A stretch of DNA of 64,000 nt from a virus (IMGVR_UViG_3300011112_000003:1-64000); one strand, 5' to 3'. Positions 4,564 through 64,000 are shown, counted from the stretch's first letter. The notes: a model not told the origin generated them from the letters alone. Program-made: numbers and translations.

Positions 4564-4578
4564 GGAATCCTTGCCTTT

Positions 4579-5057: not shown

Positions 5058-5078
5058 ATCCAGTTCCTTTTGAAACGC

Positions 5079-5110
5079 AAAAAGGCAGCCCCACCGACGT
5101 GGAACTGCCC
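5079..5110 (-). terminator. Rho-independent terminator
   Basis: Minus strand GGCAG...CTGCC hairpin followed by TTTTT. Confidence 0.5.
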
Positions 5111-5170
5111 CTGGGCACTTTGGCAGTGCCGAGCCTCAGTAGGAATACTGTCCGTGCCCACCAATCGCTG

Positions 5171-9429: not shown

Positions 9430-9445
9430 CTCGGGCAGCGTACCC

Positions 9446-38995: not shown

Positions 38996-39625
38996 GGGTT
39001 CTCTCTGTCGGATAGGGGGAGCAACGCAGGGTGAACCGCAGGTACCGGCGCATTGCTGGCCACGCGGTCATCGTCGGGGTCTTTCCGGATCAGGCAGCCC
39101 TGCGGCGGAGAACCATCTGTATGCACGTCACCCATCCGATCGCCGAGTGTGAGCTTGGGATGGCCACAGAACCCCAGTTCCGGGCCGTGAGCTTTTCGCC
39201 CGACACCGCGTACGTAGGGGCAGCCGCCGCAACTGTGGATAGTCATGCTATGCCTCTATCGGATAAGAATGCCTGCGCGGTTGAAATCGCAGCATCAAGA
39301 TCTCCGAGGTCCCCAGCCGCACGGGACCGGATGTCGGCCAGTAGTTCTGGAAGCTTGCGGGCTGCTAGCAACCGGAACGACCACTGGGACTTCGTGAGGG
39401 CGGTGGGTTCCATGTCAGCAACCCGCATTTCCTGCCCTGGGGTGTGGGGCTTTCTCCTGATGTAGAGCCCCCATACGTGCTCGTGCCTCTCCCATGTCAG
39501 GTCAACGCCGTCCTCTAGCCGGACCACGCCCCGGGCGCCCAGGTTCAATGTGTACAGACGCGATGATGCAGCGATGAGTGCTTCGTCCAGGCGTTTGCGC
39601 GCAGCCTGTACGGCGCCCCTCGCGT

Positions 39626-44938: not shown

Positions 44939-44964
44939 GTGCTCCTACTAGTAGCGGATAAGAC

Positions 44965-46824: not shown

Positions 46825-47004
46825 TCATCGCCTACCCTCCACGACGTCCTTCGCCCACTGCCGCATATCGTCGAGCCACCGCTGCGCCTCAGGCGACACG
46901 ACGCGCACAACCGGCGCCGGGTCTCCGCGCATCACGCGCATGAGCTTCGCATAGTCTGTATTGGATAGGCCTGTAGTCCCCACGATGTGCAGGCGCCCTG
47001 CCAT
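46825..47004 (-). CDS. Small protein with shared leader motif (dispersed copy)
   Basis: TTGLSNTDYAKLMRVMRGDP. Confidence 0.55.
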   Translation of the reverse strand: MAGRLHIVGTTGLSNTDYAKLMRVMRGDPAPVVRVVSPEAQRWLDDMRQWAKDVVEGRR

Positions 47005-49404: not shown

Positions 49405-49919
49405 CCTATCTTCACCTTCAGCCCTAGTAAGGCGCTGTGATAATCAAACTCCGGGTCAGCCCGCTTCGCCGCACTGACGTCGAGACATGCCTGGAAATGC
49501 GCATCATCCATGTGTCTCCAGTGCTTCGGCATGTCGACCATCGGGATTTTGTGAACGGACGCATAAAGCGCCATGGCCTCATCGGAGAGCCGGGTCTTCA
49601 TCGACGCCGTCACTGAATAGAGGTCGACGGACCCGCCGTCACCGACGCGGGCGGACAACACGTACATCACGTCGTCTTCGTCCTCTTCCTTGCGGACGAA
49701 TGCGTCTTGCTTCGAGAACGACACCCCCTTGCGGAGATCGCGGAACCCCACCGCAACCTCAGTGAGGTCTCCACATCTCACCATGCCGGCTAGCAGTTCG
49801 CCAATGTCCCACGGCCAGCAGCACGTCTTAGAGTCGGGCACCTCCGCGCTTTCGGTAGTCGAGTCGATCTTGTTCTTGCTTGGCTTGTTCACCGGGTCGG
49901 TCTTCGAGGGGTCGGTCAT
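49401..49919 (-). CDS. Hypothetical protein
   Basis: N-terminal AEVPDS shared with downstream gene. Confidence 0.55.
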   Translation of the reverse strand: MTDPSKTDPVNKPSKNKIDSTTESAEVPDSKTCCWPWDIGELLAGMVRCGDLTEVAVGFRDLRKGVSFSKQDAFVRKEEDEDDVMYVLSARVGDGGSVDLYSVTASMKTRLSDEAMALYASVHKIPMVDMPKHWRHMDDAHFQACLDVSAAKRADPEFDYHSALLGLKVKIG

Positions 49920-51654
49920 TTCGGTTCTTTCTCCAGATGCCCTTGTAGGCTCGGTGCAGCATCGAGAACGCGAGTGGGAACTGCATCATGATAAGCTTGC
50001 GCTCGTACAGGTAGAGCCGCGTCAGCTCGGCCGCGTTCTCGATCGGCGCGGTCTGCGCGTAGGGACTCACGAACCCTTCCCGCTTGCTGACCCCGAACAG
50101 TTTCTTGTGCCATTTGATAACCGGCGCTTCTCCACCCCAGCAGTACATGAGCCACACGTTCAGGGAGTGGCCCAACTCGTGTTCCAGCACATGCTTCAGG
50201 CGTGCCAACGGTAGTGTACCGGATACTCGGATTTCGTTGCCGGTCCAGTAGGCGAGGTCGTGGTCCTCCATGGCGTTGTCGACGCGCGGTTGGTCTTCGC
50301 AGATAAGCGTGACACCCACGCGCCTGTCGAATATCTCGGGAGGCGTTCGGTCTATCACCGCCTGGGCCACAGACAGCTTCTGCGGATCACCTATGCGGAT
50401 GGCGCAACCACGCTCGGGCACGACGTTCCCCCAGGTCAGGTGCGCTTTGCGTAGGTCGCCCGGTAGCAGCTGCGAGCGCAACAGACTCTGCGGCATGAGA
50501 TCGCCATCTTCGTTGAAGCCCCAGCCGTTCGGTACATGGATAAGTTCGCAAGAACACCAAGGGTGGATAGGGCCTATCGTCGCTTGCCACGCGCTTTGCT
50601 TCTTACCGACGTTCGTGCCGTTCGCCTGTAGCTCGGACAGCTTGAAGATACGCAGGGGCGAGCCTTCACCGGAGGTGTAGTGAAGGGCCACGCACCTCGG
50701 ACAGGCGCCGGGCGATGGTTGCTTCGCCACATTGATTTCGTCTGGGTCGCCCTCGCGTTCGATGAGCCCTGCGGTGAGCCCCTGCTGCATGGCGCTCTGC
50801 TTCTCGGTTGCTGAGATACGCTTGAAGTCTCGCGCCCAGTCCTGCGTGCGGTGCCCGAGGTCGCTCGCCAGCTTCCGCCAACTCTCCTGGCGCTCGATGT
50901 TCATATCCAACTCGTCGCGCACATCCGCCTGATATTTCGCGCGCAGCACAGCATCCGCCTCGACCGCGATGGTACTGAAGTCGTCGCCCACTCGGTTGCC
51001 CAGGCCTACGATGGTGTTCGCCGCATTGCCCGATGCCCAGGTGCGCGCGGCCTGCTCTTGGGTAGATAGGGTTGGGTCGCCGTACTTGGTGCGCCAGGGG
51101 TCCACGCCCAAGGTTGCCGCCTGTCCGCGCAGTTGCGGATCGCGTCCCATGGATATCCCGTAGTTGTACGCATCCGCGATGGCCTGCGCGCTCGGTGGGG
51201 CAGTCTCGCCGGGCTCGGCCTGGTAGCTGGCCTTCATGTCCTGTGGGAGCACGCCGCTGTCGATGAGCCGCTGGATATCCGCAGCGTCCACGTACTCCCC
51301 GCCCACCTGCGTCGCGATGAACGCTAGGTGGTAGTCGTTCACGATCCTGCGTATCTCCCGCAGGTGCTCCGGGTTGGCGATGGGGTCGTAGGGGCCCTCC
51401 GCCTTCTTCAGGCTATCATGGACTATCTTGGACTCCGCGTAATCGCGGATAACGCTGAGCATCTTATCTAGTTGCTTGCGGTATGCGCGCTCGAACTGCT
51501 CCGCGGACTGCTGCATTGCCTTGTAGTGCTGGAAAGTCCGCTCGGAGTACTTCACGCGCTCGGCTTTCAAGAGATACTCCGGGCCCATCACGTACTGCGC
51601 GAGTTCTAGGCGGTCCATGTCTGCTGGGGCGTCTATTGAGATATGTTTGGTCAT
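49828..51654 (-). CDS. MuF-like head morphogenesis protein with C-terminal zincin-like domain
   Basis: R.F.RI..TE, ACP.C..L, NGTN.G, P.HPWC.C; then HELGH and VSPYA....E..AE. Confidence 0.8.
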   Translation of the reverse strand: MTKHISIDAPADMDRLELAQYVMGPEYLLKAERVKYSERTFQHYKAMQQSAEQFERAYRKQLDKMLSVIRDYAESKIVHDSLKKAEGPYDPIANPEHLREIRRIVNDYHLAFIATQVGGEYVDAADIQRLIDSGVLPQDMKASYQAEPGETAPPSAQAIADAYNYGISMGRDPQLRGQAATLGVDPWRTKYGDPTLSTQEQAARTWASGNAANTIVGLGNRVGDDFSTIAVEADAVLRAKYQADVRDELDMNIERQESWRKLASDLGHRTQDWARDFKRISATEKQSAMQQGLTAGLIEREGDPDEINVAKQPSPGACPRCVALHYTSGEGSPLRIFKLSELQANGTNVGKKQSAWQATIGPIHPWCSCELIHVPNGWGFNEDGDLMPQSLLRSQLLPGDLRKAHLTWGNVVPERGCAIRIGDPQKLSVAQAVIDRTPPEIFDRRVGVTLICEDQPRVDNAMEDHDLAYWTGNEIRVSGTLPLARLKHVLEHELGHSLNVWLMYCWGGEAPVIKWHKKLFGVSKREGFVSPYAQTAPIENAAELTRLYLYERKLIMMQFPLAFSMLHRAYKGIWRKNRNDRPLEDRPGEQAKQEQDRLDYRKRGGARL

Positions 51655-51851
51655 GGCAGCATGCTTCCCATCCCGCAACCGAAGTTCCGCAGCTTGGCCT
51701 CGGCTCTCGTGATGCCCTCGCGGTCAGCCCGCTCCTGGTGGATGTCCCGCCCCGGGCTCTTGGTTGGGAGGTAGATCCGAGGCAGTCCTCGCGCTCCCCT
51801 GTTCCTCCGCATGCGGATGGCAAAGGCTTCGTTGGATAGGTTCTTAGTCAT
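51651..51851 (-). CDS. Leader-motif family protein
   Basis: MTKNLSNEAFAIRMRRNRGA. Confidence 0.65.
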   Translation of the reverse strand: MTKNLSNEAFAIRMRRNRGARGLPRIYLPTKSPGRDIHQERADREGITRAEAKLRNFGCGMGSMLP

Positions 51852-52177
51852 GAGTCCGATACCAATGATAGGGGGATGTTGATTGTCTTCGAGAAGATAA
51901 CGAGGTCGCTCAGGCGCATGCTGACTTCGACGACTCCCGGTGATGTCTCGACCACCTCCGCAGACACCACCCCAGGCATGGCCTCGACGCTCTTCTTGAT
52001 GCCTCCCACAGTGGGCTTCCGCCATGGCCCTGCGCCCAGCATCAAGGCCTCCCACTGCTCAATGAACTCCGCGTACTGCTCCCCCTTTGTCATGACCGGT
52101 ACACGGATCAGTCGCGGCTCTCCACGTTGCTCCCGCATACGATCTGCGTAGTCGTCGTTGGATAGGTTGTTCGTCAT
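51848..52177 (-). CDS. Leader-motif family protein
   Basis: MTNNLSNDDYADRMREQRGEP. Confidence 0.7.
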   Translation of the reverse strand: MTNNLSNDDYADRMREQRGEPRLIRVPVMTKGEQYAEFIEQWEALMLGAGPWRKPTVGGIKKSVEAMPGVVSAEVVETSPGVVEVSMRLSDLVIFSKTINIPLSLVSDS

Positions 52178-52181
52178 TATC

Positions 52182-52478
52182 TTAGGCCGTGTCCATACGT
52201 ATCGTGAAGGACTGAATACTAGGCGCAGGGTCTCGGAGCCGCAGCTCGACGATGACCTCCCCTGGCACCCCACGAGTCACCTTCGCACTCTCCACTCTGG
52301 GCATGCGTGCGGCAGCTTCTTTGATGTCGCTCAATGTCGGCGCCGGGGGGCGGAACAGCCCCGGCGAGAAGGCGCGGATGTCTAGTAGGGGTGTGGACGA
52401 CACCGGGAGCTTCGGTGGCTCCCCCCGTTGACGCCGGGCATGCTCGGCGAACTCCCTGTTGGATAGATCGTTGGTCAT
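52182..52478 (-). CDS. Leader-motif family protein
   Basis: MTNDLSNREFAEHARRQRGEP. Confidence 0.7.
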   Translation of the reverse strand: MTNDLSNREFAEHARRQRGEPPKLPVSSTPLLDIRAFSPGLFRPPAPTLSDIKEAAARMPRVESAKVTRGVPGEVIVELRLRDPAPSIQSFTIRMDTA

Positions 52479-52855
52479 GTCTTGTACTCCCGGATCACAG
52501 ACTGCTTCGCGCCAAAATCCCATCCCAGGTAGTAGGTTGACCGTCGGTCGTAGTCGCGGGCCTCCGGGTTGGTCTTCAGGGGCTTCATGGGCATGCATAC
52601 GGGTCGGTGGGTGTCCATCCAGCGCAAGGCTTGGATGTCTACCTGGCCTCGACTGAACCACGCCGCTCCTGGCTCTCTCCATGCCCGCTGTAATGCGGCT
52701 ATCTCAGCATAGGCATCGGACAGGAGCATCACACGGCGGCCCCCTTGCTCGTCGTCGTACTCCAGTACGCAGTTGTCCGGCAGTGGGTAGAGTCTGAGTC
52801 CTGCGATCAGGATGTTGGTGCGGCCCTCCATCGGGGCTCTGGGATGTCTGGTCAT
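52475..52855 (-). CDS. Hypothetical protein inside the array (no leader)
   Basis: ATGA-coupled on both sides. Confidence 0.55.
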   Translation of the reverse strand: MTRHPRAPMEGRTNILIAGLRLYPLPDNCVLEYDDEQGGRRVMLLSDAYAEIAALQRAWREPGAAWFSRGQVDIQALRWMDTHRPVCMPMKPLKTNPEARDYDRRSTYYLGWDFGAKQSVIREYKT

Positions 52856-53226
52856 ATCTGCCTTCCAAGGTTCTGCCAGCCATCGGGCTCATGGTACTTG
52901 AGGAATGTGACGCGCCATAGGTCGGGGCCCGCCTCGCCCACGTGTAGCTTCACGTGGCTCACCAGTTCGCTCAGGTGGACTACGCAATGGGACTTGTTCG
53001 AGATAGGCGAGCCGCGCTCGTCGGTGGGGCGCAATAGGATGCAGTCCTTAGGCAGTCCGATATCCTTTGCGAACTGCGGTAGCTCCGTGTGCTTGGGGGT
53101 CCAGGCGAGTACCCACATGGTGCGTCCGCGGATGGGTGGCGGGGCCTGCCCTCGCTTACACCGTTGGCGGCTGGCGAAGTCTTCGTTGGATAGACCTCGG
53201 GTCATGCGGTCCTCGATGTGCTTCAC
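52852..53226 (-). CDS. Leader-motif family protein
   Basis: MTRGLSNEDFASRQRCKRGQAP from 53205; GTG at 53226 is coupled to the upstream stop. Confidence 0.7.
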   Translation of the reverse strand: MKHIEDRMTRGLSNEDFASRQRCKRGQAPPPIRGRTMWVLAWTPKHTELPQFAKDIGLPKDCILLRPTDERGSPISNKSHCVVHLSELVSHVKLHVGEAGPDLWRVTFLKYHEPDGWQNLGRQI

Positions 53227-53684
53227 GTAGCGTACCCATCACAGGGCGTGACATGGCTCAGCCCCGCCAGCCCACATGCTGCATGGACTACCGACTGTAG
53301 GACTATGTTTTCCCTGCGCTCGCTGGCGTAGGGCTGGCGGTTGAGTTGGATAAGGCGGCCTTCAGGGCTCACCATGTTGACCGTGTACTGGTCGTCGTCA
53401 TTGCCGGAACCGGGCCCGCTGAGCAACCCCGCGTTCAATGCCTTGACGTTCAGGAACGGACCGAAGCCATCGGAGATAAAGGCATGCTCCTTTTTCTCTG
53501 CATCCCACAGCGCCCACCTACCCGTGGCGATAGCGATGCTGTAGGTAAGCCTGTTTAGGTCGAGGGTCACTAGCCCGCCGGCTAGGCACTGTGTCATGAC
53601 GACGGGTGGCCAGAACAATTGAGGCTCCCCTCGCCTCTCACGCATACGACTGGCAAAGTCTTCGTCGGATAAGTCTTGAGTCAT
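53223..53684 (-). CDS. Leader-motif family protein
   Basis: MTQDLSDEDFASRMRERRGEP. Confidence 0.7.
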   Translation of the reverse strand: MTQDLSDEDFASRMRERRGEPQLFWPPVVMTQCLAGGLVTLDLNRLTYSIAIATGRWALWDAEKKEHAFISDGFGPFLNVKALNAGLLSGPGSGNDDDQYTVNMVSPEGRLIQLNRQPYASERRENIVLQSVVHAACGLAGLSHVTPCDGYAT

Positions 53685-54055
53685 AGCCGCTTGATGTCCA
53701 AGGTGGAGTGGTCGCCGGGGGGCACGATGGCATTCCTGCATTTCAGCTGAATCCGCGTAGGTACGTCGAACACCCAAGTCCCCCACAACCGCACAACTGC
53801 CGCCGGGCCACGCGCGGGGTGTGCGCTCGCAATAAAAATCCCTGTCGTGGCGTTGCTGAGATGCAGCGATGGAACAGCGCCTTCGTCACCCCAGCCCAGC
53901 ATGGCCATGGCCGTGATCCTGTAGCTGCCGGGCGAATGGATGTCCGCACTCAGCAGCGTCTGCCACATCGGTGATTGCTGCTGCTGCTTCGGCAGTTCCC
54001 CCCGCTGCGCTCTCATGCGCTCGGCGTACGCTTCGTTGGATAGGCTTTGAGTCAT
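53681..54055 (-). CDS. Leader-motif family protein
   Basis: MTQSLSNEAYAERMRAQRGELP. Confidence 0.7.
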   Translation of the reverse strand: MTQSLSNEAYAERMRAQRGELPKQQQQSPMWQTLLSADIHSPGSYRITAMAMLGWGDEGAVPSLHLSNATTGIFIASAHPARGPAAVVRLWGTWVFDVPTRIQLKCRNAIVPPGDHSTLDIKRL

Positions 54056-54384
54056 TTCGATGGCTCGCAGCCAGGCCTGAACGTGACTTGCCAAATGTCC
54101 GGCCCGTCATCGCTCACTTCCACTTCATCCGCGTGGCTCCAGTGGCTCTCATGGACTGCCCGGAACCGGGCATCCGGTAGGGCAGCTCCCCTAGCGTCGC
54201 ATTCGAGCATCACGACGAAACCATTCTCAAAGCCGGGGCTCGGACGGAATTCCTCGGGCAGATCCTTGTGATGCCTGCGCCACACCTGCATGCGGACTGG
54301 GCCCCGGCCCAATCGCTTGGGCGGCTCTCCCCTGTTGCTCCGCATGCGCGCCGCATAGCTGCTGTTGGATAATGCACGGGTCAT
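54052..54384 (-). CDS. Leader-motif family protein
   Basis: MTRALSNSSYAARMRSNRGEP. Confidence 0.7.
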   Translation of the reverse strand: MTRALSNSSYAARMRSNRGEPPKRLGRGPVRMQVWRRHHKDLPEEFRPSPGFENGFVVMLECDARGAALPDARFRAVHESHWSHADEVEVSDDGPDIWQVTFRPGCEPSK

Positions 54385-54845
54385 CGGCGCGGCCGCTGCG
54401 TGATCTGCGCGTCTCCCACCGCCATCGCTTCGGCAAGATCTGTTACCCCCTGCTTTACTGTGATGGTGGCGATCAACACCGCGGACATCAAATCGGGGTG
54501 CTCGACGTATGGCTCTGTATCAAAGGCAACTGCTGCTTCAGAGAGAGAGTCGTACACCACGAGCCCGTACACTGCGGTTGTGATGCCCTCCTTCCGCCAG
54601 TGGTACACCCGCTGGTTGTGGAACTTGCCTTCCGGAACGGGTACGGGCTCGGGCGCCCACGGGGGTTGGTAACGCTCAGGATCTATATCCTCACCCCGCT
54701 CGCCCCGAAAGGTCAGGTCACCGTCCGCGTTGACAAATGCGCAAGTCAACCCGGGCAACTCAGGCAGTCCCAGCGCCAGTGGCGATTCCCCACGCTTCCC
54801 ACGCATGAGATTGGCGAATGCTGCGTTAGATAGGCCCTGGGTCAT
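54381..54845 (-). CDS. Leader-motif family protein
   Basis: MTQGLSNAAFANLMRGKRGESP. Confidence 0.7.
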   Translation of the reverse strand: MTQGLSNAAFANLMRGKRGESPLALGLPELPGLTCAFVNADGDLTFRGERGEDIDPERYQPPWAPEPVPVPEGKFHNQRVYHWRKEGITTAVYGLVVYDSLSEAAVAFDTEPYVEHPDLMSAVLIATITVKQGVTDLAEAMAVGDAQITQRPRR

Positions 54846-55201
54846 ACCATCCACTTCCCCATGCTCGTAGTCCAGCCCGGCGGGGTGAGTCCGGGCAGGA
54901 AGGATATCTCGCAGATGTCGGGCTGCTCTGGCAGCAGGCTCCGGGCCTTGAACTTGAACCGCGCCTCATCCAAATCGGTCCAGGGCACCACAAATCGTTG
55001 GATGCTTCGGATCCACGCCCCGTTATCCCACACCATCGTGACCATCATCTCGTCTTCGCCTATCTCGCCCCATGGGCAGCCCACCGGCAGTACGTGCGTG
55101 CTGCAGTGCATGGTCGCTTGGAACCACCAGCGTCTGATAGGTTCTTCGCGTTTGCTCCGCATGTGGTTGGCGAACGCATTGGGGGATAGGTCTTGGGTCA
55201 C
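54842..55201 (-). CDS. Leader-motif family protein
   Basis: (GTG)TQDLSPNAFANHMRSKREEP. Confidence 0.7.
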   Translation of the reverse strand: MTQDLSPNAFANHMRSKREEPIRRWWFQATMHCSTHVLPVGCPWGEIGEDEMMVTMVWDNGAWIRSIQRFVVPWTDLDEARFKFKARSLLPEQPDICEISFLPGLTPPGWTTSMGKWMV

Positions 55202-55575
55202 AGGCGCCCGTACTCTTCCACGAGCAGTCGCGGTGATCCGCCGCGCACCAACCCCCCAGTCACCCGCATGTATATCTTGCGGTCCATGGCCCATGCGTAT
55301 CGATCGCTGAGCGCCATGGTGTGCCATTCATCGGCGGGCACCGTCATGCGTATCTCCTGAAGCAGACCCGACATATCATACAAGCTGAGGATGACTTCGC
55401 CCGGGCCCCGCACAATGACACTGACCGTCACACAGTAGGTGTTCCCATCGCCCGGTACGATGGCCTCACCCAGGTTGTTGATATTGAACTTTGGGGCGGG
55501 CAAGCGCATCAGGGGCTCCCCACGGCGCGCCCGCATGTGATTCGCATAGCGCAGGTTGGATAGGCTTTGGGTCAC
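55198..55575 (-). CDS. Leader-motif family protein
   Basis: (GTG)TQSLSNLRYANHMRARRGEP; body paralogous to 55572-55970. Confidence 0.7.
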   Translation of the reverse strand: MTQSLSNLRYANHMRARRGEPLMRLPAPKFNINNLGEAIVPGDGNTYCVTVSVIVRGPGEVILSLYDMSGLLQEIRMTVPADEWHTMALSDRYAWAMDRKIYMRVTGGLVRGGSPRLLVEEYGRL

Positions 55576-55970
55576 GCGATGGGCTCCACGAGTATGCGCC
55601 ACGATCCTTCGCGCACCGTACCCCCGGTCACGCGCAGGTAGATCTTGCGGTCCGAGCTGCAGGTGTAGTGATGGCGGAGCCCCACGACGCGCCACGAGTC
55701 GCTGTCCAGATCCTCGCGCCAATCCTCCAGCATGCCCGCCCTGTCGTACAGCCCTACGATGACGGCGCTGGGGCCCTTCACCCAGAGGGAGCCCTTCACG
55801 TGGACATGCGCCATCACGCTGTATGTCCTCATGTCCCCCGTGATCGTGGCCTCTGCTACGTTATTGATATTGAACGGCTGTTGGATAGGAGCGGGCTCCG
55901 GTGGCTGCCCGCGGAGTAGGCGCATGTGCTCGGCGTACGCCCCGTCGGATAAGGTCGTTGTGTCTACCAT
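55572..55970 (-). CDS. Leader-motif family protein
   Basis: MVDTTTLSDGAYAEHMRLLRGQP. Confidence 0.7.
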   Translation of the reverse strand: MVDTTTLSDGAYAEHMRLLRGQPPEPAPIQQPFNINNVAEATITGDMRTYSVMAHVHVKGSLWVKGPSAVIVGLYDRAGMLEDWREDLDSDSWRVVGLRHHYTCSSDRKIYLRVTGGTVREGSWRILVEPIA

Positions 55971-56362
55971 TCGCTGCACGCTATGACTGTAGGGTTGGGG
56001 CCGGGCGTGTTCAGGAACGCGGTCCACATGTTGGTGACTCCCTTGTCCTCATCATCGTGATATTTGATGGTCAGTGCTTCGATGCGCCCGATCGAACTCG
56101 TCTCGCATTGCGACTCACGGCCCCAGTCCAGCTCCTCGGCGCTTTTCCAGGCCAGATCCGTCACAGCCGCCATGTCGGTGGTGTCGCCGCCTATCCACCA
56201 CCGCACGTCCTCAATCTCCACCACGAACAATGTGTAGCCCTGCCTGTGGTGCCGCTCGCGCATCGGGTCGCTATGGATAAGGCCTGCCTGCACTTGCCGC
56301 CTGCGTATCCTGAAGCGCACCGCGAGCGCATCGTTGGTGAGGTGGCGCGTGTCGTAGGGCAT
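55964..56362 (-). CDS. Leader-motif family protein (divergent)
   Basis: MPYDTRHLTNDALAVRFRIRR. Confidence 0.6.
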   Translation of the reverse strand: MPYDTRHLTNDALAVRFRIRRRQVQAGLIHSDPMRERHHRQGYTLFVVEIEDVRWWIGGDTTDMAAVTDLAWKSAEELDWGRESQCETSSIGRIEALTIKYHDDEDKGVTNMWTAFLNTPGPNPTVIACSEW

Positions 56363-56364
56363 TA

Positions 56365-56937
56365 CTACGCCAAACTCAGGGTGTGCCGGTGGAACGCGAC
56401 GTCCATGGGGGCGAGGTACCAGAAGGTCAACGACACCACGGCCGTGTCTCGACTCTTCTGGTCGATATCCCCGACCTGGACTTCACGTATCTCACGGATG
56501 GCGGGTATGTCGCACAGCGCTACCAGCATGTCCCGCTCGGTAGGCTTACGTTCGGATATCACGTCCACCGAGCCCGACCACTGGCGCCAAGTGCGCATGT
56601 CCGGCCGTAGCACGAACGGCACGCGCGAGAAGTCTACGTCGATTCCGTGAATGTCCGGCCAATAGCTGATCATGGTTCGCTGTTGGCCCGATGTGCTGGT
56701 GACCGTGCGGACCTTCAAGACCATGCTCGGGTTCCCAGGCAGGCCCGTGCCTAGGAGGGCCACAACCGAGCGTAGGATATCGTCTGGGTCTGCATTGGTG
56801 TCGAGGAAGCGATCGGCATGCACAAGCGCAACGCACCCCGCCCATACACGCGCGCCATGAGGGATGGGATCCAGCGGGTGCTTGCGAGTCGCACGCATGT
56901 GGCGCGCGAAGTCCTGATTGGATAGCGCGAGGGTCAC
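56365..56937 (-). CDS. Leader-motif family protein
   Basis: (GTG)TLALSNQDFARHMRATRKHP. Confidence 0.7.
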   Translation of the reverse strand: MTLALSNQDFARHMRATRKHPLDPIPHGARVWAGCVALVHADRFLDTNADPDDILRSVVALLGTGLPGNPSMVLKVRTVTSTSGQQRTMISYWPDIHGIDVDFSRVPFVLRPDMRTWRQWSGSVDVISERKPTERDMLVALCDIPAIREIREVQVGDIDQKSRDTAVVSLTFWYLAPMDVAFHRHTLSLA

Positions 56938-57188
56938 CCCCACCTCGCGCCAGATGCGCGCGCCCGCTCGCGCTCGCTCAGCTGGGATATGCCTGGCTTT
57001 GAGCGGCATCGCTTGCACACGGGGTTCATGTTCTTCGCGCGGTACTTGCGGCCGCACTCGTCACAGCGTGGCCAGTTGGCTCGCTTGTCTGGTCCCTTGA
57101 CCTGTTTCTCGCGCACGCACCTCTTCACGCGCATGCGCTGAGCAAAGTCTTCGTCGGATAGGCCGCGCGTTGCTGAGTCGTTGTTCAC
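56934..57188 (-). CDS. Leader-motif family protein with Zn ribbon
   Basis: TRGLSDEDFAQRMRVKR; CDECG...CKRC. Confidence 0.65.
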   Translation of the reverse strand: MNNDSATRGLSDEDFAQRMRVKRCVREKQVKGPDKRANWPRCDECGRKYRAKNMNPVCKRCRSKPGISQLSERERARASGARWG

Positions 57189-57904
57189 AGCGCGCACTCC
57201 AGGTAGCAGACCAGTCCGTTGCCCCAGTCCATGCACCGCGAGCCCGGCAACCCTGTACAGTCGGCTTCGGTCGTGCAGCTCGGTGCCGCGTGGTCGTCGG
57301 TGCCTCCGGTGCCGCAGAAGGCAGCATCCCCGGTAGCCACCGACTGACCGCACGCCATGCCCACAGGGCACGCCTCGGGTGACGGCGGCCCGCAACAGAA
57401 GCTAGCGCAGTTCCCACACTCGCCTACCGGCCGCTCTTGCCCCGGGACACACGGCGCAAGCCGGCACGTAGGCCCCGTATCACCATCCCCGTCGCCGTCT
57501 CCACGGTCCCCATCCCCAGCACCATCGCCGTCCCCGTCACCACTGCCGCCATCGCCGACCCCGCCGCCAGTGCCCGCACCATCACCATCTCCGTCACCGT
57601 CCCCACCTCCATCGCTGCCACCAAGTAATCCCCCGCTATCCCCATTCCCGCCAGTGCCGTCCCCCAGGCCCACGCTACCATCGTTCGGATAGTCGTCTTC
57701 GCAAGGAAGCCCACCGCAGGGATCACCGCGGTCACTCGGACCCCCAGCACCAGCAGATCCCATGCTGTCCACCCAATCACCACTCCTATCCAAATCATCA
57801 CTACCTCCGTCCTGACCACAGCACGCATTGTCTACGGCAACATCGCCGTCCGTGATTGCAGTGCAGCCCGTGAGCAGCGCCAAAATGATAATCAGATGTC
57901 CCAT
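57185..57904 (-). CDS. Myxobacterial-type Cys-rich lipoprotein with GDGDGD linker
   Basis: Lipobox LLTGC; (GD)n repeats; Cys-rich end. Confidence 0.7.
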   Translation of the reverse strand: MGHLIIILALLTGCTAITDGDVAVDNACCGQDGGSDDLDRSGDWVDSMGSAGAGGPSDRGDPCGGLPCEDDYPNDGSVGLGDGTGGNGDSGGLLGGSDGGGDGDGDGDGAGTGGGVGDGGSGDGDGDGAGDGDRGDGDGDGDTGPTCRLAPCVPGQERPVGECGNCASFCCGPPSPEACPVGMACGQSVATGDAAFCGTGGTDDHAAPSCTTEADCTGLPGSRCMDWGNGLVCYLECAL

Positions 57905-58324
57905 CACGCGGTCCCTCCTACCTGCCAGGCCGTCCACACCCACGCGCTACCATCCCAGATGCCTTCGCAACGTGAACCGCTGACGGTCTGGAATGTCCCT
58001 GTGATCTTCGAGGGGCCGTTCACCACTATTTTCTGTCCCCCGTCTTTTGCCCACTCCTTCCGCGCCTGTTCGTACTGCCTAAGTTCACCCGCGAACTCTT
58101 CGGCAGACATGGTGCGTACGTACACATCAGTATCTGCTATCTCGTCCCACTCGTAGACCTCACGGCAGGGACGACAAGGGGGCCCATACCAGACCACAGA
58201 GGTGTCAACCTCTTCGCTGACCTCGGCACGTATGAACGGTTCCCCCAGCCAGGGATCGGGGAAGGCTACCCCCAGCTCACCCAACATCGCTTTGGCGCCC
58301 GCAAGATTGCTCAGATGTCCCATC
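57892..58324. repeat. 14-bp direct repeat TCAGATGTCCCATC flanking one gene
   Basis: Identical copies at 57892-57905 and 58311-58324. Confidence 0.75.
57904..58323 (-). CDS. Hypothetical protein (cassette between direct repeats)
   Basis: MGHLSNLAGAKAML...; start lies inside the repeat. Confidence 0.55.
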   Translation of the reverse strand: MGHLSNLAGAKAMLGELGVAFPDPWLGEPFIRAEVSEEVDTSVVWYGPPCRPCREVYEWDEIADTDVYVRTMSAEEFAGELRQYEQARKEWAKDGGQKIVVNGPSKITGTFQTVSGSRCEGIWDGSAWVWTAWQVGGTA

Positions 58325-59057
58325 GCACACTCCCCTCGCACCCCTGCGTGTTGCACGCGATGCTGATATCTTCGTTGCCTGCCCACATGAGCCAGGCGCC
58401 CACACCCGTGACGATTGCGCCCAGCGGCAACAGCACGTCGGTCGCGATACCTAGTGTATCAACGGTGCTGCCTAAATCACGGCCCTCGCGCAGGTCTCCC
58501 GCGGCACACTGGCGGTCGGCCCCGCATAGCGTGTCGAGGTCACTGTCAGCCCCCACGGCCAGGACGCCGGTAATGCTGCCCGCCAGAATGAGCGCTCCGC
58601 CGCCCACGAGCAGGCTGACGGGCAGAACGTCGCTGCGGACGGGCGCTGGCACGGGCGCGACCGCCTGAGGGGCCTGCGGGGGCTCCTGGGGCGGTTCTGG
58701 CTCGGGTGGCTCCTCGAACTTCGTGAATGGGCCCTCATCCGCAGGTTTCCGCAAGCGCACGATGCGGCCCCGCACTTCGTCGCCCCGTGGTGTGTCAGCC
58801 TCCCACCGCAGGAACCGCTCGTAGGCCGCGACCGCTTCCGCGTCATGGCTCAGTGCCTCGTGCGCCAGACCGATGTTGTAGTGCAGCTTGGGATGCCCCG
58901 ATTCCCGCAAGGACTGCTGCCAATGAGTCATGGCCACCGTGTAGTCACCCGCATCGTAGGCAGTTCGGCCCGCCTCGAATGCAGTGCGGCCGCGCTCGCT
59001 CATCTGTGCGGAAACTGGAATCGCTATCAGGCAAATAGCTAATGAAATCCTCATCAT
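58311..59057 (-). CDS. Myxobacterial-type TPR membrane protein
   Basis: GGGGGAGG RBS; signal peptide; F..G..AY..GDY..A, LHYNIG.A.E, A.AAYERFL; C-terminal TM segments. Confidence 0.75.
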   Translation of the reverse strand: MMRISLAICLIAIPVSAQMSERGRTAFEAGRTAYDAGDYTVAMTHWQQSLRESGHPKLHYNIGLAHEALSHDAEAVAAYERFLRWEADTPRGDEVRGRIVRLRKPADEGPFTKFEEPPEPEPPQEPPQAPQAVAPVPAPVRSDVLPVSLLVGGGALILAGSITGVLAVGADSDLDTLCGADRQCAAGDLREGRDLGSTVDTLGIATDVLLPLGAIVTGVGAWLMWAGNEDISIACNTQGCEGSVRWDI

Positions 59058-59080
59058 AGCTCGGTCCTCCCCCAAGTCCT

Positions 59081-59129
59081 GTACGTACGGTACCGCAACC
59101 GCGTACGTACTGCAAGCGCATTTGGATAA
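59081..59129 (-). promoter_or_regulatory. Promoter with paired GTACGTAC operators
   Basis: TTATCCAAA..TTGCA GTACGTAC N14 GTACGTAC (59103-10, 59081-88). Confidence 0.65.
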
Positions 59130-59131
59130 AG

Positions 59132-59336
59132 CTAATTGAATCTGTATTTCGCTCGGTACATGTGGGCTTCCCCGGGGACCTCTCCAAGGTCGTAGCCCGT
59201 CGCCTCCGGGCGGAGCCTGCGCCATTGCCCGATCGTGGAACTCCCGAGACGCCTTATCGAGGTCGAAGGGCGTGGGCACCTCGCAGCGCAGGCGGCGCAT
59301 ACGCTTGGCGAACTGCACGTTGTTCTCACTACGCAT
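59132..59336 (-). CDS. Leader-motif family protein (apparent 1-nt frameshift near 59229)
   Basis: MRSENNVQFAKRMRRLR; the +1 frame continues QWRRLRPEATGYDLG...FN-stop just before the promoter. Confidence 0.45.
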
Positions 59337-59691
59337 CCCCAGACCCTCGGCGGAACAAGGCCTTCACCTGAATCTCCGCGCTCCACAGGCCGGACGCAAC
59401 CCATGGGCGGATGCGCACGATGTGGTGCTCTTTGAGCTTCGGGTTACCGCCCGGTTGCCTGGTCACCAGAATGCGCGGCGCAAGTAGATGCTCGCGGGGC
59501 AGGTAGTGCATCTGATCGTCCGGCACGCGGTTGCCCAGCAGCGAGCACGGGATCACATCGAACCCATCCTGCAGTTGGGTCGACCGCATGACCATGTGCA
59601 GTTCGATCCATGCGAGCAGTGCAGACTTGTCACCCCGCTTGGCCCGCATGTGCGCCGCGAACTCTTCGGCGCCTAGCTCAGTCGTCGTCAC
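59329..59691 (-). CDS. Leader-motif family protein
   Basis: (GTG)TTTELGAEEFAAHMRAKRGD. Confidence 0.65.
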   Translation of the reverse strand: MTTTELGAEEFAAHMRAKRGDKSALLAWIELHMVMRSTQLQDGFDVIPCSLLGNRVPDDQMHYLPREHLLAPRILVTRQPGGNPKLKEHHIVRIRPWVASGLWSAEIQVKALFRRGSGDA

Positions 59692-60037
59692 GGGGCGGCG
59701 GGGCCTTGCGCCCGAGCAGGGCCACCATGTGTTGACGATGGCCCGCGGCACATTCCAACCAGAACCTGACCTCAGCCATACGCTGCTCCGCGGAACGCAG
59801 TGCGCGCCGCATGTCTGCCTGGATCTCCAACACCTCCCGGGGTGTGCCTCCGGGCGGCGGGAAATCGCGAGGGTCCGTGTAAGCGAGCGTAATATCCAGT
59901 CGCGCCGCCTGGGCTTGCTCGCGCGCGATGAGGTGGGCGAGCGCGACTTCGGTACCGCCTTTCTTGCACACCTCCGAGAACTCACGCTGCAGCGCTTCGA
60001 TTGGATCTTCGGTGGGGGGTGTCTCTTCGTCTGCCAT
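59678..60037 (-). CDS. Hypothetical protein
   Basis: ATG 12 nt after TATCCGA motif. Confidence 0.55.
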   Translation of the reverse strand: MADEETPPTEDPIEALQREFSEVCKKGGTEVALAHLIAREQAQAARLDITLAYTDPRDFPPPGGTPREVLEIQADMRRALRSAEQRMAEVRFWLECAAGHRQHMVALLGRKAPPPRDDD

Positions 60038-60060
60038 GCCCACGCTATATCGGATAAGAG

Positions 60061-60669
60061 CTACGCGATGCCAATGGTCCGCGCGTACACTTCTCTCGCT
60101 CGTGCCTGCGCGGAGCGGGCCTTTCCAGTCGCCTGCCAGATCTCCGGGTCGGTGTGCCCCGGGTCCCGGTCATCGAGGGCGTGCAACATTTCGTGAATGA
60201 CGGGCTCGCCTTCGCTGATCACCAGGCTGATTAGGCTTACGCGAATCACGGCGAGGGGCATGTGCCCTCCAACGCTTCGCGGAACCTCGTCCAGGTACGC
60301 AGCTGCTTTCCGCAAGTACTCCCGCGGCTCGTGGTCGAACTCCACATCGGGTCTGAACCAAACCGCCACCTCCCCGATTTTCTTGTGGGGGCCGGTCTGC
60401 CCGGTAAGGGTCCAGCCGTGGCCCGTTGCAGCCACTGCTTTCGCACAGGACCCTTGCAGTACGATACTCGGCGCCCCCGCGGAGGTCAGCACGTGGACCT
60501 CGTAACCCTCGTAACCCGAGGTCCTGCGCGACCCTTCCAGGCCCGGCCAACGGTACCGACGACCAAGCCAGAAGTAGTGCAGCAGCAGCCAGACACCAGC
60601 AAACAGCAACCCCCCAACCGAGATGATGGTGATAACCCAATCTTTCACGTCCATTTCACTAATGCTCAT
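60061..60669 (-). CDS. Membrane-anchored protein with HExxH
   Basis: N-terminal TM; IHEMLH. Confidence 0.55.
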   Translation of the reverse strand: MSISEMDVKDWVITIISVGGLLFAGVWLLLHYFWLGRRYRWPGLEGSRRTSGYEGYEVHVLTSAGAPSIVLQGSCAKAVAATGHGWTLTGQTGPHKKIGEVAVWFRPDVEFDHEPREYLRKAAAYLDEVPRSVGGHMPLAVIRVSLISLVISEGEPVIHEMLHALDDRDPGHTDPEIWQATGKARSAQARAREVYARTIGIA

Positions 60670-60867
60670 GATCTGCCTACTACCTCCGCAAGACGGTCCT
60701 CTACTTGTCGCGCACGCTCTTCTCGTTTGACCTTGCTGGCCATCTTCAGGATCTTGCGCGCGAGCGACGGGAAATGCTCGCTGCGAACAACCGTCCAGAA
60801 CTCCCTGTGGAGCGGCAGCATCCTGAAGATATGTACGAGCAGCTTGACCTCGCCAGGGGTGAAGCTG

Positions 60868-61368
60868 TTACTGGCCGCTACTCTCCGCCTGAGCTTCTTC
60901 CCGTTTTCTGCCACCCGCGACCTCACACCTCTCCGCCCATGCTTGGATGGACTCGAACGCAGCCAGATCAGTCGCGTGTTCCTCATCGGATAGCGCGCAG
61001 AAGATAGAACTCTCGACGGGACCGCTGGCCACGATGAGCCGCCCGAGCCCACGGGCGGCCGTCCGGTTGGCCCTGATCTGCGCGAGCGCGTAGCCCGCCT
61101 CGAACCACGCACCCGCTGTGCGGGTCTCAGGCGTCAACAGCCAAAAGACCCGGGCGGTGTCAACCATGTCCAGGTCTTTGGTGGCGTAGCCTCGCGCGTC
61201 CTCCCGCGATAGCTCGGCGTCCGTCGGCCCCCCGTCAGCCTGGACGTCCGCTATGACCGCGGCCCAGTCGTACGCCAGCTCCAGGTACCGGGAACCCAGT
61301 AGCAGCCCCTTCACGAAAGTGAATCGGGCGGTCTCTTTACTGGATGCGGCGACGTAGACTTTGATCAT
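60868..61368 (-). CDS. Nucleoside 2-deoxyribosyltransferase-like protein
   Basis: KVYVAASS, DW, A.KDL..V..A, GAWFEAGYALA. Confidence 0.65.
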   Translation of the reverse strand: MIKVYVAASSKETARFTFVKGLLLGSRYLELAYDWAAVIADVQADGGPTDAELSREDARGYATKDLDMVDTARVFWLLTPETRTAGAWFEAGYALAQIRANRTAARGLGRLIVASGPVESSIFCALSDEEHATDLAAFESIQAWAERCEVAGGRKREEAQAESSGQ

Positions 61369-61410: not shown

Positions 61411-62184
61411 TTACGGCGTGGCTACCAAATCCCCGGCGAGGAAAGCTGTCAGCTTGAGTGCGCTGGTGAGCGACAAGTTCGTGACCTGTAGGGCGCTTGC
61501 CTGCACCGTCCCCAAGAAATAGGCCTGGAGACCCTCCGCCGCCGATGAGCCCGCTGGGTCGGCCGGTCGAAGCACCTGAATGTCCGTTGTGCCAGGCTCC
61601 GCAGCAGTTCCCGCGTTGGTGGCAGCTGTGAGCCCCAGGGCCGTCAGAACGGCTGCTGTGCTCGACGCCAGGACTTCTACGGTGCTACTCGGTCCGGTCG
61701 ACAGGGAGCGCAGCAGTAGCTCGGCCACGTTGGGGAAGGCGATCGGCTTGGCCACGAACGCGGCATTGGTGTTCGCCGCGTCGAAGTTGATGCGGGCCAC
61801 CACCTCGTCGCGGGTCTGGTCGGCCACGTCGAAGGTGACAGTGATCGGGATGGTGTCCACGACCAACTCCAGCACCTCCCCCCCTGTGAATCCCGTCGGG
61901 TACGTCCCCGCAACGCCCAGCAGCACACCAGCCGTGGCGAGCGCGGCCGCGAGCGCAAGGGAAAACTCACTGTCGCCCGACAGGTAGAGGTAGCGAAGAT
62001 CGGTGATGTCGCCGAAGTCGATCTGCTCCGTCTCACCACCCAAGATCTCATAGGTCGTGGTGGTCGAGTGCTCCAGCGTATCCAGGATCTGACTGATCAC
62101 GCCCTGACCGCCGAACACCTTGTTGACGAGGTCGCCGTTGAGACCTGCAATCAGGTCAAGAGTGGTTGAGATACGAATGCCCAT
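61411..62184 (-). CDS. Virion structural protein
   Basis: Follows portal; ITVTF...T.DEVVARIN, L.L.S..TG.SS...V, L.ALGL beta-rich pattern. Confidence 0.55.
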   Translation of the reverse strand: MGIRISTTLDLIAGLNGDLVNKVFGGQGVISQILDTLEHSTTTTYEILGGETEQIDFGDITDLRYLYLSGDSEFSLALAAALATAGVLLGVAGTYPTGFTGGEVLELVVDTIPITVTFDVADQTRDEVVARINFDAANTNAAFVAKPIAFPNVAELLLRSLSTGPSSTVEVLASSTAAVLTALGLTAATNAGTAAEPGTTDIQVLRPADPAGSSAAEGLQAYFLGTVQASALQVTNLSLTSALKLTAFLAGDLVATP

Positions 62185-63918: not shown

Positions 63919-64000
63919 CTACTTCACGTGCCTCCAGTTACGACCGCATATGACCTGCGAAATCGTCGGCTGTTTCACACCATACTCGCGTGCCAGGCTG
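63919..64000 (-). CDS. C-terminal HTH of a probable HNH endonuclease (partial)
   Basis: LAREYGVKQPTISQVICGRNWRHVK-stop resembles the tail of 7647-8270. Confidence 0.6.
   Translation of the reverse strand, partial: SLAREYGVKQPTISQVICGRNWRHVK

Follow-up and report, generated by a model that had tools for sequence, protein, structure and literature searches.

A short N-terminal leader shared by an array of small phage genes with divergent bodies: a candidate docking tag

Shared address tags are known from T4, which uses them to load anti-restriction internal proteins, and from multi-receptor phages, which use them to mount binding proteins; to our knowledge only a handful of such tags have been described, almost all from model phages. 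The T4 capsid targeting sequence (CTS) is roughly 10 residues long, and the prohead protease cleaves it off. In attachment proteins such as the adenovirus fiber and PRD1 P5, a conserved N-terminal docking part (the fiber tail in adenovirus) is combined with a variable distal head. The multi-tailspike complexes of Ackermannviridae are likewise attachment proteins with a constant anchor and variable heads (PMC11414711). MuF proteins are regarded as components of the head, and the effector domains fused to them as cargo carried into the host cell (PMC5512222); processing of the multidomain proteins is ascribed to zincin-like peptidases (PMC5512222; PMC5576092).

Here we describe an uncultured phage (virus record of 72 kb, myovirus lineage, 62% GC) in which at least 16 neighboring small minus-strand genes share one N-terminus of ~20 residues and differ in their bodies. 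Positions refer to the window, i.e. the whole 64,000-nucleotide stretch analyzed. In the available accounts of T-even phages the CTS is the sole common part of diverse small internal proteins, as the leader is here, and in both cases the genes vary between related phages. In contrast to the T4 CTS proteins, to which it has no sequence relation (no PHROGs/Pfam match), the tag here is a basic helix with a long proline-rich linker, and occurs in 16–19 copies in a single genome, 16 of them in one coupled array. A TNF/C1q-like fold, not known for T4 internal proteins, is predicted for at least one body. The constant anchor, spacer, and variable β-sandwich head of attachment proteins resemble the plan predicted here, but the bodies are very small (45–170 aa) and lack a shaft, a recognizable head fold is predicted for the body at 54055 and not for family F1 among those modeled, and the array lies outside the tail/baseplate module, between p257 and a MuF-like gene. 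The tail fiber gene (8317–9450) is ~42 kb from the array and the sheath gene is at 2272–4578. MuF toxins and polyvalent proteins place variable modules by portal and MuF, as observed here, where the MuF-like protein carries an HExGH motif; however, they are fusions, whereas the array consists of separate genes, each with its own start and stop, and Pfam searches assign none of the bodies to a known family of toxins or effectors.

Array organization and the leader peptide

The 16 start coordinates proposed in an earlier note on this DNA are all minus-strand ATG (n = 11) or GTG (n = 5; 55201, 55575, 56937, 57188, and 59691) codons, each opening a leader-bearing protein, with ORF lengths of 66 to 341 residues (Table 1). 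The mechanical ORF list indeed chooses upstream starts, hiding the leaders as the note had stated. Nine of the 16 array proteins are recorded in a public protein library from exactly these starts, which thus agree with independent gene calls; a tenth library protein of this phage, the copy at 46980, is recorded with an upstream start. Most starts had been said to overlap the previous stop, and 10 of the 15 junctions do so, eight by a 4-nt ATGA/GTGA overlap and two by 7 to 8 nt. Three junctions have gaps of 2 to 17 nt, and the remaining two are larger gaps containing the three leaderless genes of Table 1. The end of the last array gene and the start region of the MuF-like gene overlap. The in-frame continuation of the longest leader ORF (58311–59336) encodes a Sec-like signal peptide, TPR repeats, and a hydrophobic segment.

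Table 1. Genes of the array, further leader copies, and flanking features
Feature	Coordinates	Strand	Remarks
MuF-like minor head protein, 616 aa	49828–51678	−	C-terminal HExGH motif
Leader gene, 66 aa	51651–51851	−	Leader E = 1.9e-13; last array gene
Leader gene, 109 aa	51848–52177	−	Body paralogous to gene at 52478
Leader gene, 98 aa	52182–52478	−	Leader profile
Leaderless gene, 126 aa	52475–52855	−	Within array; 4-nt overlap with each neighbor
Leader gene, 117 aa	52852–53205	−	Body family F1 (“GPDIW” family)
Leader gene, 153 aa	53223–53684	−	Top leader score, E = 3.8e-16
Leader gene, 124 aa	53681–54055	−	AlphaFold: helix, linker, 8-strand jelly-roll body
Leader gene, 110 aa	54052–54384	−	Body family F1; AlphaFold: detached helix and β body
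Leader gene, 154 aa	54381–54845	−	Acidic body
Leader gene, 119 aa, GTG start	54842–55201	−	Distant member of family F1
Leader gene, 125 aa, GTG start	55198–55575	−	Body paralogous to gene at 55970
Leader gene, 132 aa	55572–55970	−	Start and body comparison
Leader gene, 132 aa	55964–56362	−	Degenerate leader, E = 1.6e-10
Leader gene, 190 aa, GTG start	56365–56937	−	Leader profile
Leader gene, 84 aa, GTG start	56934–57188	−	Very basic body; four cysteines, CxxC...CxxC
Leaderless gene, 252 aa	57185–57943	−	N-terminal lipoprotein-like signal (LTGC), Gly/Asp-rich repeats; family D4
Leaderless gene, 160 aa	57904–58386	−	ORF call
Leader ORF, 341 aa	58311–59336	−	Weak leader and ~90 aa, then TPR part
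Leader gene, 120 aa, GTG start	59329–59691	−	First array gene
Rest of inserted island: p121, p202, p166	59678–61368	−	ORFs and profile matches
p257	61411–62184	−	Conserved flank with portal
Portal	62188–63915	−	PF04860 E = 3.4e-21, phrog_12 E = 6e-49
Leader gene outside array, 139 aa	30524–30943	−	E = 1.8e-7; ortholog P0013 elsewhere
Weak leader-like ORF, ~70 aa	44965–45180	−	E = 3e-4
Short leader gene outside array, 51–59 aa by start choice	46825–46980	−	E = 4.4e-8

Alignment of the first ~21 residues gives the consensus MTxxLSNxxFAxRMRxxRGEP, in which A11, R15, and R18 never vary and T2 and L5 each occur in 90% or more of the leaders. The leader profile detects the 16 array genes in the phage’s own record at E = 3.8e-16 to 1.9e-10, and two to three more copies beyond the array in the same 72 kb (30943, 46977, and, weakly, 45177). 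Among the 1.84 billion representatives of the protein library there are 35 matches, 10 of them this phage’s own, and in 34 of the 35 the motif starts 17 or fewer residues from the N-terminus. With all 16 members queried, the leader matches no family in Pfam or PHROGs (E ≤ 0.01), and it has no match in the PDB, which bears out the initial impression that it comes from no described family.

The leader resembles the first helix of an Xre-type helix-turn-helix; an Xre-type identity was rejected, no Pfam HTH family being matched even at E ≤ 1 and AlphaFold predicting only one helix. A Sec/Tat signal peptide was likewise rejected, as the leader runs into Gly-Glu-Pro and a polar proline-rich stretch rather than a hydrophobic core, and so was a RiPP or bacteriocin precursor array, given bodies of 45–321 residues of which two are predicted as confident β domains; no RiPP-type modifying, cleaving, or export enzymes were found among the Pfam/PHROGs-annotated neighbors of the array genes.

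As DNA, the leader is a 57–65-nt repeat with 60–72% identity in eight to nine copies. An explanation at the nucleic-acid level, with the ~60-nt 5′ coding segment acting as a translation re-initiation/regulatory module or a recombination site and the peptide as a by-product, would account for codons 5 and 6 being fixed as CTA/TTA plus TCC: Leu5 is CTA in 13/17 and TTA in 3/17 leaders (genome shares 10.5% and 1.6%), and Ser6 is TCC in 15/15 (genome share 18%), with binomial p = 3e-10 to 3e-14. It would also suit the 15 occurrences of YTATCCRAC against 1.0 expected, the ATGA/GTGA coupling at most starts, and the natural deletion joint described below, which lies exactly on a YTATCCRAC stretch. 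However, codon choice is free at the remaining synonymous sites although the encoded residues are fixed, and the leaders average 52% nucleotide identity. Since GC3 in leader codons 2–9 (0.67) is not below that in other genes (0.55), a general relaxation of mRNA structure is excluded. We consider a nucleic-acid element highly improbable. Judged from codon comparisons, the leader is under selection at the protein level; A11, R15, and R18 are encoded by three to five different synonymous codons across leaders, and relatives keep the peptide with different codons and without CTATCC.

Divergent bodies and cassette turnover at the leader

BLAST between the bodies of the array genes identifies three pairs, and over 276 pairs of 24 body groups the highest hhalign probability is 7.3%. 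At this depth of sequence comparison the bodies are not one detectable family, which agrees with the earlier description of one leader on divergent bodies. Body types include a basic Cys4 mini-protein, a TPR protein and, in relatives, proteins of 200–280 residues, and body charges range from −14 to +11 without a common DNA-binding or DNA-mimic bias. The 25 external leader proteins have no credible Pfam match, ProSAAS (E = 0.0087) alone falling below E = 0.01.

The AlphaFold model of family F1 has a helix at residues 7–16 (pLDDT ~58), a coil, and a β body at pLDDT 80–90, and that of the gene at 54055 has a helix at 7–17 (pLDDT 57), a linker at 19–28 (<50), and a body above 90; in both models the helix is unpacked from the body. 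Proline-rich linkers follow the RGEP motif in this phage and in the leader proteins of relatives. The predicted architecture is modular: a low-confidence helix stands apart and is followed by a disordered proline-rich linker and a β-sandwich modeled with confidence. In fold searches the modeled 54055 body resembles TNF, CD40L, and C1QL2 (TM 0.57–0.59, Foldseek probability 1.0); a further match, at E = 1.1e-3, is to the domain by which a cyanophage short tail fiber binds. Atlas look-alikes of the body at 55575, which is unrelated to 54055 in sequence, include collagen-like protein heads, BclA_C, and CBMs (TM 0.66), a lead only toward a surface-binding module. F1, the most widely distributed body, has no structural match in fold searches. 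A TM of ~0.6 over ~100 residues of modeled β-sandwich is weak evidence of function.

In an independent metagenome run (X2), a contig joins 51828 to 52155, such that exactly one 326-nt cassette (gene 51848–52177) is absent and the reading frame is kept; the joint falls on a 14-nt stretch identical between the two leaders, and is based on one contig at depth 3.3 with an 85% likeness threshold. One natural leader-to-leader deletion therefore exists. The leader of the external protein P0003 shares 19 of 21 residues with the one at 54055, while the bodies are unrelated. The in-frame deletion and this leader/body swap lend direct support to a repeat-plus-cassette locus, one of three options raised in the earlier note.

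These data also bear on whether the proteins form a single fast-diverging paralog family, with the helix as a functional core under constraint and bodies that have drifted beyond recognition, without any cassette logic. Three neighbor sets (52177/52478, 53205/54384(/55201), and 55575/55970) are clear tandem duplicates, all three bodies modeled or looked up are small, β-rich, and of similar size, and leader quirks are co-inherited with bodies in the orthologs 53205/P0016, 30943/P0013, and 56937/P0032, as such a family would predict. Nevertheless, the hhalign ceiling, the range of body types, the quite different fold-search results for the F1 and 54055 models, and the occurrence of a near-identical leader on unrelated bodies argue against common descent of the bodies, and we regard this explanation as improbable.

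Genomic context and the proposed docking partner

The MuF label on 49828–51678 has weaker evidence than the portal call: it relies on a match to phrog_115 “minor head protein” (E = 0.0084), 28–32% identity to proteins of Herelleviridae, one of which carries a minor capsid protein annotation, and synteny beside the portal that is conserved in relatives. The HExGH motif is kept in 28 of 29 relatives’ matches, although profile searches of this region did not find a zincin fold. A prohead-protease-like gene (17762–18514) matches only PF04586, at E = 0.0092, below cut-off.

The earlier note had placed the array between portal and MuF, and the location is correct. The portal-p257-MuF block is, however, uninterrupted in 27 of 41 related loci, where p257 adjoins MuF, so that the array junction is an insertion site; the array is a lineage-specific insertion, part of the 9.7 kb that splits the block. 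Because of this, and because another relative (L011) has unrelated cargo at the same junction, the portal-MuF position is weaker evidence than had been assumed. The first interpretation otherwise holds with respect to a shared short leader, unrelated bodies, and an undescribed family.

Tentatively, we read the leader as a docking tag common to a set of exchangeable modules, with the virion as its probable destination. The leader would form one short α-helix (~S6 to R18) that displays F10, A11, and M14 as well as R13, R15, and R18; this helix would terminate at Gly-Glu-Pro, and a floppy proline-rich linker would tie it to exchangeable small β-sandwich modules. A docking helix was another of the earlier options, and the detached-helix/linker/β-body architecture that it implies fits the AlphaFold models; the helix would dock, with a virion protein as its putative partner. 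Since the docking helix is common to them, all tagged proteins would be brought to one common partner, for which a site on the assembling virion is favored. The third option, a packaging or injection tag, is possible. The modules may reside within the head, as T4 internal proteins do, or act at the surface as knob-like decoration or adhesin modules, and we are roughly evenly split between the two. The array would represent an expansion particular to this lineage, in which recombination between leaders adds, removes, and reassorts members.

A virion partner is favored by context: the array is on the portal/p257 strand run and stop-start coupled as far as the MuF-like gene; MuF proteins belong to the head, and HExGH is kept in the MuF-like protein; and the modeled body at 54055 has a TNF/C1q-like and tail-fiber-like fold, with the look-alikes of the body at 55575 as a further lead. 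The same surroundings can be read differently, as the position of the array beside head genes may mean little. The helix might instead dock modules on an in-cell hub (a host or non-structural phage protein), in which case the array would supply a set of adaptors or inhibitors serving host takeover or counter-defence. The lipoprotein-like gene, a membrane HExxH protein (p202, with a TM segment and an HEMLH motif), and the secreted-TPR leader ORF suit an in-cell accessory island rather than a particle; another island gene product, p166, has weak likeness to nucleoside deoxyribosyltransferase. In relatives the leader genes are scattered, zero to four per genome, outside the head module and among non-structural genes, upstream of the terminase in G001 and, judged by eye, beside primase-like and methyltransferase-like genes in G004 and G001. 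The lack of a shared DNA-binding or DNA-mimic charge bias among bodies would also fit such a hub. In contrast, no body matches a known anti-defence or effector family in Pfam/PHROGs, folds of the TNF/C1q or carbohydrate-binding kind are more usual for surface binding modules, and the coupling of the array to the MuF-like gene is tight. An in-cell hub seems to us rather unlikely.

Implications of the proposed docking tag

A more far-reaching version of the virion-docking proposal, which we offer as speculation with little expectation that it holds in full, is a “protein-level integron”, in which one universal docking helix would mount a shifting repertoire of 16 or more small binding modules at a single particle site, and the nucleotide core of the leader, AACCTATCCAACGA and its variants, would also be the recombination point. 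Virions would then be mosaic and multi-specific, and cassettes would be lost, gained, and swapped between phages at the leader core.

The locus provides a clean, highly expanded example of an address tag: an easily synthesized 20-residue tag on more than 12 unrelated cargo modules, with natural evidence that cassettes also turn over at the tag. Identification of its partner would allow the tag to be used for loading or displaying foreign proteins on a new capsid type and would make the cargo an inventory of small phage functions as yet unknown. Should a host protein be the partner, the array would represent a new form of multi-adaptor host takeover.

A shared leader on divergent bodies

All 16 positions that the earlier note had read as gene starts are start codons on the minus strand (11 ATG, 5 GTG). 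They open proteins of 66–341 aa, and the first ~21 residues of most of these align without gaps to MTxxLSNxxFAxRMRxxRGEP (the leader), with Ala11, Arg15, and Arg18 invariant among array members. The proposed stop/start overlap is common (4 nt at 8 of the 15 junctions, 7–8 nt at two more), and three genes without a leader are interspersed in the array (Table). Independent gene callers chose the same starts: nine of the 16 array proteins are in a public protein library from exactly these positions. A leader profile run on the record recovers the 16 array genes (E = 3.8e-16 to 1.9e-10), together with copies beyond the array at 30943 and 46977 and a weak one at 45177. The feature is real, striking, and statistically secure. 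The leader corresponds to no known domain, with no match in Pfam, PHROGs, or PDB; among PDB sequences, the best hit of its profile was a FliM segment (E = 0.14). Membership tests led us to reject a MuF fusion, a RiPP leader, a helix-turn-helix (HTH), and a secretion signal as identities for the system.

Conservation acts on the peptide, since invariant residues use several synonymous codons (CGG, CGT, and AGA for Arg15; AGG, CGT, CGG, CGA, and CGC for Arg18), nucleotide identity between leaders averages 52%, and related phages keep the leader peptide with other codons. The alternative of a mainly nucleotide-level role draws on codons 5 and 6, of which the former is near-fixed (CTA in 13/17, TTA in 3/17) and the latter is TCC in 15/15, against genome-wide shares within the codon family of 10.5% for CTA, 1.6% for TTA, and 18% for TCC (bias p = 3e-10 to 3e-14); likewise, the window contains 15 copies of YTATCCRAC, where 1.0 would be expected. 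The CTA codon is not explained by a general enrichment of AT in early codons. The CTA/TTA-TCC bias is not preserved in relatives, and we regard a mainly nucleotide-level role as improbable, below a protein partner in the virion or in the cytoplasm. Recombination between leaders may be what keeps the CTATCC core fixed, or may itself be promoted by this core. In 16S rRNA of E. coli, the 3′ region is complementary to AUCCAAC. Over the whole window CTATCC is present in 59 copies against 21 expected. Most plus-strand copies are GGATAG(N2-7)ATG of minus-strand gene junctions seen in reverse complement, where GGATAG, a few bases before the ATG start, looks like a stop codon with a ribosome-binding site; these copies are therefore distinct from the leader. 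Four CTATCC copies crowd within 70 bp at 21645–21714, where no repeat family was found.

The bodies, the parts of the proteins beyond the leader, form no single detectable paralog family. BLAST among 22 bodies gave three clear pairs, all of them neighbors or near-neighbors (52177/52478, 53205/54384, with 55201 weakly, and 55575/55970; genes are named by start coordinate). When the profiles of 24 body groups were compared pairwise (276 pairs), no probability exceeded 7.3%, although the alignments are shallow and very remote kinship could be missed. We regard descent of all bodies from one diverged family as unlikely, if slightly less so than a nucleotide-level role. The sole Pfam match among the bodies is to TPR repeats in the 341-aa member. 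The most widespread body is the “GPDIW” family (F1; genes 53205, 54384, and 55201, plus five external members), for which no structural match was found in PDB or BFVD. The modeled body of 54055 resembles TNF-alpha, CD40L, and C1QL2 (TM by query 0.57–0.59, rmsd ~3 Å), and the structure it matches best is a binding domain from the short tail fiber of a cyanophage (E = 1.1e-3); all of its matches have Foldseek probability 1.0 and none has E <1e-3. ESM Atlas clusters, which by the tool’s own statement are leads only, were collagen-like, C1q, and BclA_C for 54055, and, at TM 0.66, collagen, BclA_C, and carbohydrate-binding for the sequence-unrelated body of 55575.

Two members unrelated to each other were modeled with AlphaFold, F1 from an 8-sequence alignment and 54055 from its single sequence. 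The F1 model has a helix at residues 7–16 (pLDDT ~58), a coil, and then a beta body (pLDDT 80–90); that of 54055 has a helix at 7–17 (pLDDT 57), residues 19–28 below 50, and an eight-strand sandwich above 90. In both models the leader helix is unpacked against the body. The sequence suggests that L-S-x-x-(D/E)-F caps the helix at its N-terminal end, with a hydrophobic staple, and that G19-E-P forms the C-cap and stops it; Phe10, Ala11, Met14, Arg15, and Arg18 would then share one helix face. Beyond RGEP, leader proteins of this phage and of its relatives continue with a proline-rich stretch. When the leader (alignment A4, 45 aa) was co-folded with the scaffold-like and major head proteins in two runs without controls, the score was 0.00 both times, which speaks neither for nor against docking.

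Genomic setting of the array

The IMG/VR virus record is linear, 72,078 bp long, and estimated to be 68% complete, the window being its first 64 kb. GC content of the window is ~62%, all of its convincing genes are on the minus strand, and a search of the DNA found no tRNA genes. Within 49–64 kb no promoter-like sites were found, and terminator-like sites occur at chance-level frequency.

Table. Genes of the head module, the array region, and beyond
Feature	Position	Strand	Match	Placement or remark
Large terminase	4048–5799 of DNA locus L062		phrog_38, E = 3e-58	first in transcription order
Portal	62188–63915	minus	PF04860, E = 3.4e-21; phrog_12, E = 6e-49	after terminase
p257, unknown 257-aa protein	61411–62184			after portal, before array region
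HEMLH protein, 202 aa	60061–60669	minus		flanks array
121-aa protein	59678–60043	minus		overlaps first leader gene by 14 nt
341-aa leader ORF	58311–59336	minus	PF07719, E = 2.9e-6	TPR repeats
Gene without leader	57904–58386			inside array
Gene without leader, 252 aa	57185–57943	minus		inside array
Gene without leader	52475–52855			inside array
MuF-like minor head protein, 616 aa	49828–51678	minus	phrog_115, E = 0.0084	after array region
Helicase	43052–44944			DNA metabolism, downstream of MuF-like gene
Thymidylate synthase	38132–39067			DNA metabolism, downstream of MuF-like gene
MazG-like gene				DNA metabolism group, downstream of MuF-like gene
Prohead-protease-like gene	17762–18514		PF04586, E = 0.0092, under cut-off	far downstream
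Scaffold-like gene	16693–17742			far downstream, after protease-like gene
Major head protein	15214–16623		phrog_752, E = 1e-89	far downstream
Tail fiber and sheath genes				far downstream, past major head protein

The portal is 34–38% identical to portals of SPO1-like Bacillus and Lysinibacillus myoviruses, and the MuF-like protein shows 28–32% identity to Herelleviridae proteins, one of them annotated as a minor capsid protein. The C-terminal ~90 residues of the portal (62188–62500, minus strand) are rich in Asp, Gly, and Glu and make up a strongly acidic tail; the match to the portal ends at about residue 474–483 in many relatives. Expected to lie inside the head, the tail is a conceivable candidate counterpart for the basic leader helix. 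A leader-like 11-residue fragment ends the ORF upstream of the portal (63941–63973, minus strand; E = 0.02).

Several genes of the island stand apart from the small leader genes. The 252-aa protein has a lipoprotein-like N terminus (LTGC), a long Gly/Asp-rich stretch encoded by degenerate ~30-nt repeats (family D4), a cysteine-rich C-terminal part, and a net charge of about −35. The 341-aa leader ORF contains an apparent complete Sec-type signal peptide ~95 residues in, followed by the TPR repeats and then a hydrophobic stretch. Possible readings are the in-frame fusion of a leader gene with a secreted protein that the phage acquired, and a true start site inside the ORF. Two HExxH proteins flank the array, neither with a match to a Pfam peptidase family: the 202-aa protein, which has an N-terminal membrane segment and was found solely in this island, and the MuF-like protein, which has HExGH in its C-terminal part, a motif present in 28 of the 29 hits among relatives. 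The 121-aa protein has an acidic N terminus, no family match, and no homolog in the relatives’ loci.

Comparison with 41 IMG/VR loci encoding portals 33–70% identical to that of this phage refines the earlier placement of the array between portal and MuF: the interval, more exactly p257 to the MuF-like gene, stands, but the array is inserted there, and the leader genes of relatives lie elsewhere. Portal, p257, and MuF are directly consecutive in 27/41 loci, the MuF match starting ≤224 nt past the p257 match. In 11/41, no p257 was detected between the portal and the MuF that comes after it, the gap being ~0.5–0.8 kb (four closer relatives) or 2.9–4 kb (seven distant ones); two loci (L011 and L012) have no MuF after p257 in the DNA examined, and a single locus contains just the portal. 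Here, 9.7 kb separates p257 from MuF, and the inserted genes have no homolog in the 41 loci. L011 (12450–21695) and L012 carry foreign, lower-GC cargo without leader genes at this junction, including, by eye, a vWA-like and a ThyX-like protein. Given the 9.7-kb insert here and the different L011 cargo at the same site, the p257/MuF junction is a recurrent insertion hotspot.

Distribution of the leader and probable exchange of bodies

The leader profile, searched against 1,835,955,588 cluster representatives as the earlier note had suggested, matched 35 proteins at E ≤ 1e-3, ten from this phage and 25 external; the motif starts within the first 17 residues in 34 of them, and the external proteins contain no credible Pfam domain. 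A word-indexed protein search added nothing to these 35. No cultured phage matched among 50,697 phage records (tblastn of the external leader protein P0003 gave four, all with E ≥ 0.9), and no IMG/VR or JGI metagenome contig matched a strict pattern of degenerate codons encoding LS[ND]xx[FY]AxxMRxxRG[EQD]P; two further external proteins (P0016 and P0011) gave nothing useful as IMG/VR queries. Among the 41 loci only two contain a profile match, one each, and 5 of 10 whole relatives’ records have one to four matches at E ≤ 1, in proteins of ~60–280 aa that are scattered, once as two neighbors. Being present in relatives, the tag is old within this phage group; its 16–19-fold expansion is specific to this genome. 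A weak “baseplate” PHROGs lead in one relative’s record (G004; E = 0.0049) was rejected, the leader-like ORF being antisense to the surrounding plus-strand genes. Small ORFs at two loci carry weaker, C-terminal copies of the motif (L053, 15–197, and L056, 1–216, both plus strand; E = 6e-5 and 7e-6 per genome); if these are real, the helix could act at either protein end.

The earlier idea of a repeat-plus-cassette locus found support in two observations. The record itself probably stems from run X1, and none of the runs listed for the array is of RNA. X2, an independent metagenome run from another study, yields short contigs 85–100% like parts of the region; one of them (depth 3.3, shorter side 74 letters) joins 51828 to 52155, skipping 326 nt. 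This is the exact distance between starts 51851 and 52177, so that one cassette is lost from leader to leader and the joined form stays in frame. At the joint the two leaders agree over 14 bases, in a stretch containing CTATCCAAC. Such an identity is too short to account for a false join of 31-mers, but the joint is seen in a single low-depth contig. The second is P0003, whose leader is 19/21 identical to that of 54055 and whose body is F1. In other orthologs, leader quirks travel with the bodies. These three lines suggest that the genes are passed down vertically and are also exchanged at the leader.

Candidate partners of the leader

We tentatively favor the reading that the leader is a docking tag through which numerous small, unrelated modules reach a common partner, by preference in the virion. 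A virion partner is suggested by the coupling of the array into the portal-to-MuF gene run, by the conserved HExGH of the MuF-like protein, by at least one body, that of 54055, with a knob-like predicted fold, and by the known role of MuF in the head, where it carries effector domains (PMC5512222). Counting against it are the insertion of the array at a hotspot, the scarcity of leader genes in relatives and their position in other parts of the genome, and the presence in the island of a lipoprotein-like gene, an HExxH protein of the membrane, and a leader ORF running into a secreted TPR protein. These same features make docking of the modules on a cytoplasmic hub a serious rival, if a less likely one.

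For the docking tag, the constant N-terminal anchor recalls the architecture of attachment proteins, but the genomic place of the array is wrong for tail proteins. The internal proteins of T-even phages, to which the earlier note had pointed, are the closest analog as diverse proteins sharing an N-terminal tag; PMC3012670 describes them as a diverse set with the capsid targeting sequence alone in common. The likeness does not extend to the sequence of the tag, which is unrelated; the tag here is longer, predicted to be helical, followed by a linker, and far more expanded. The tag is new, and the kind of system is already known in principle.
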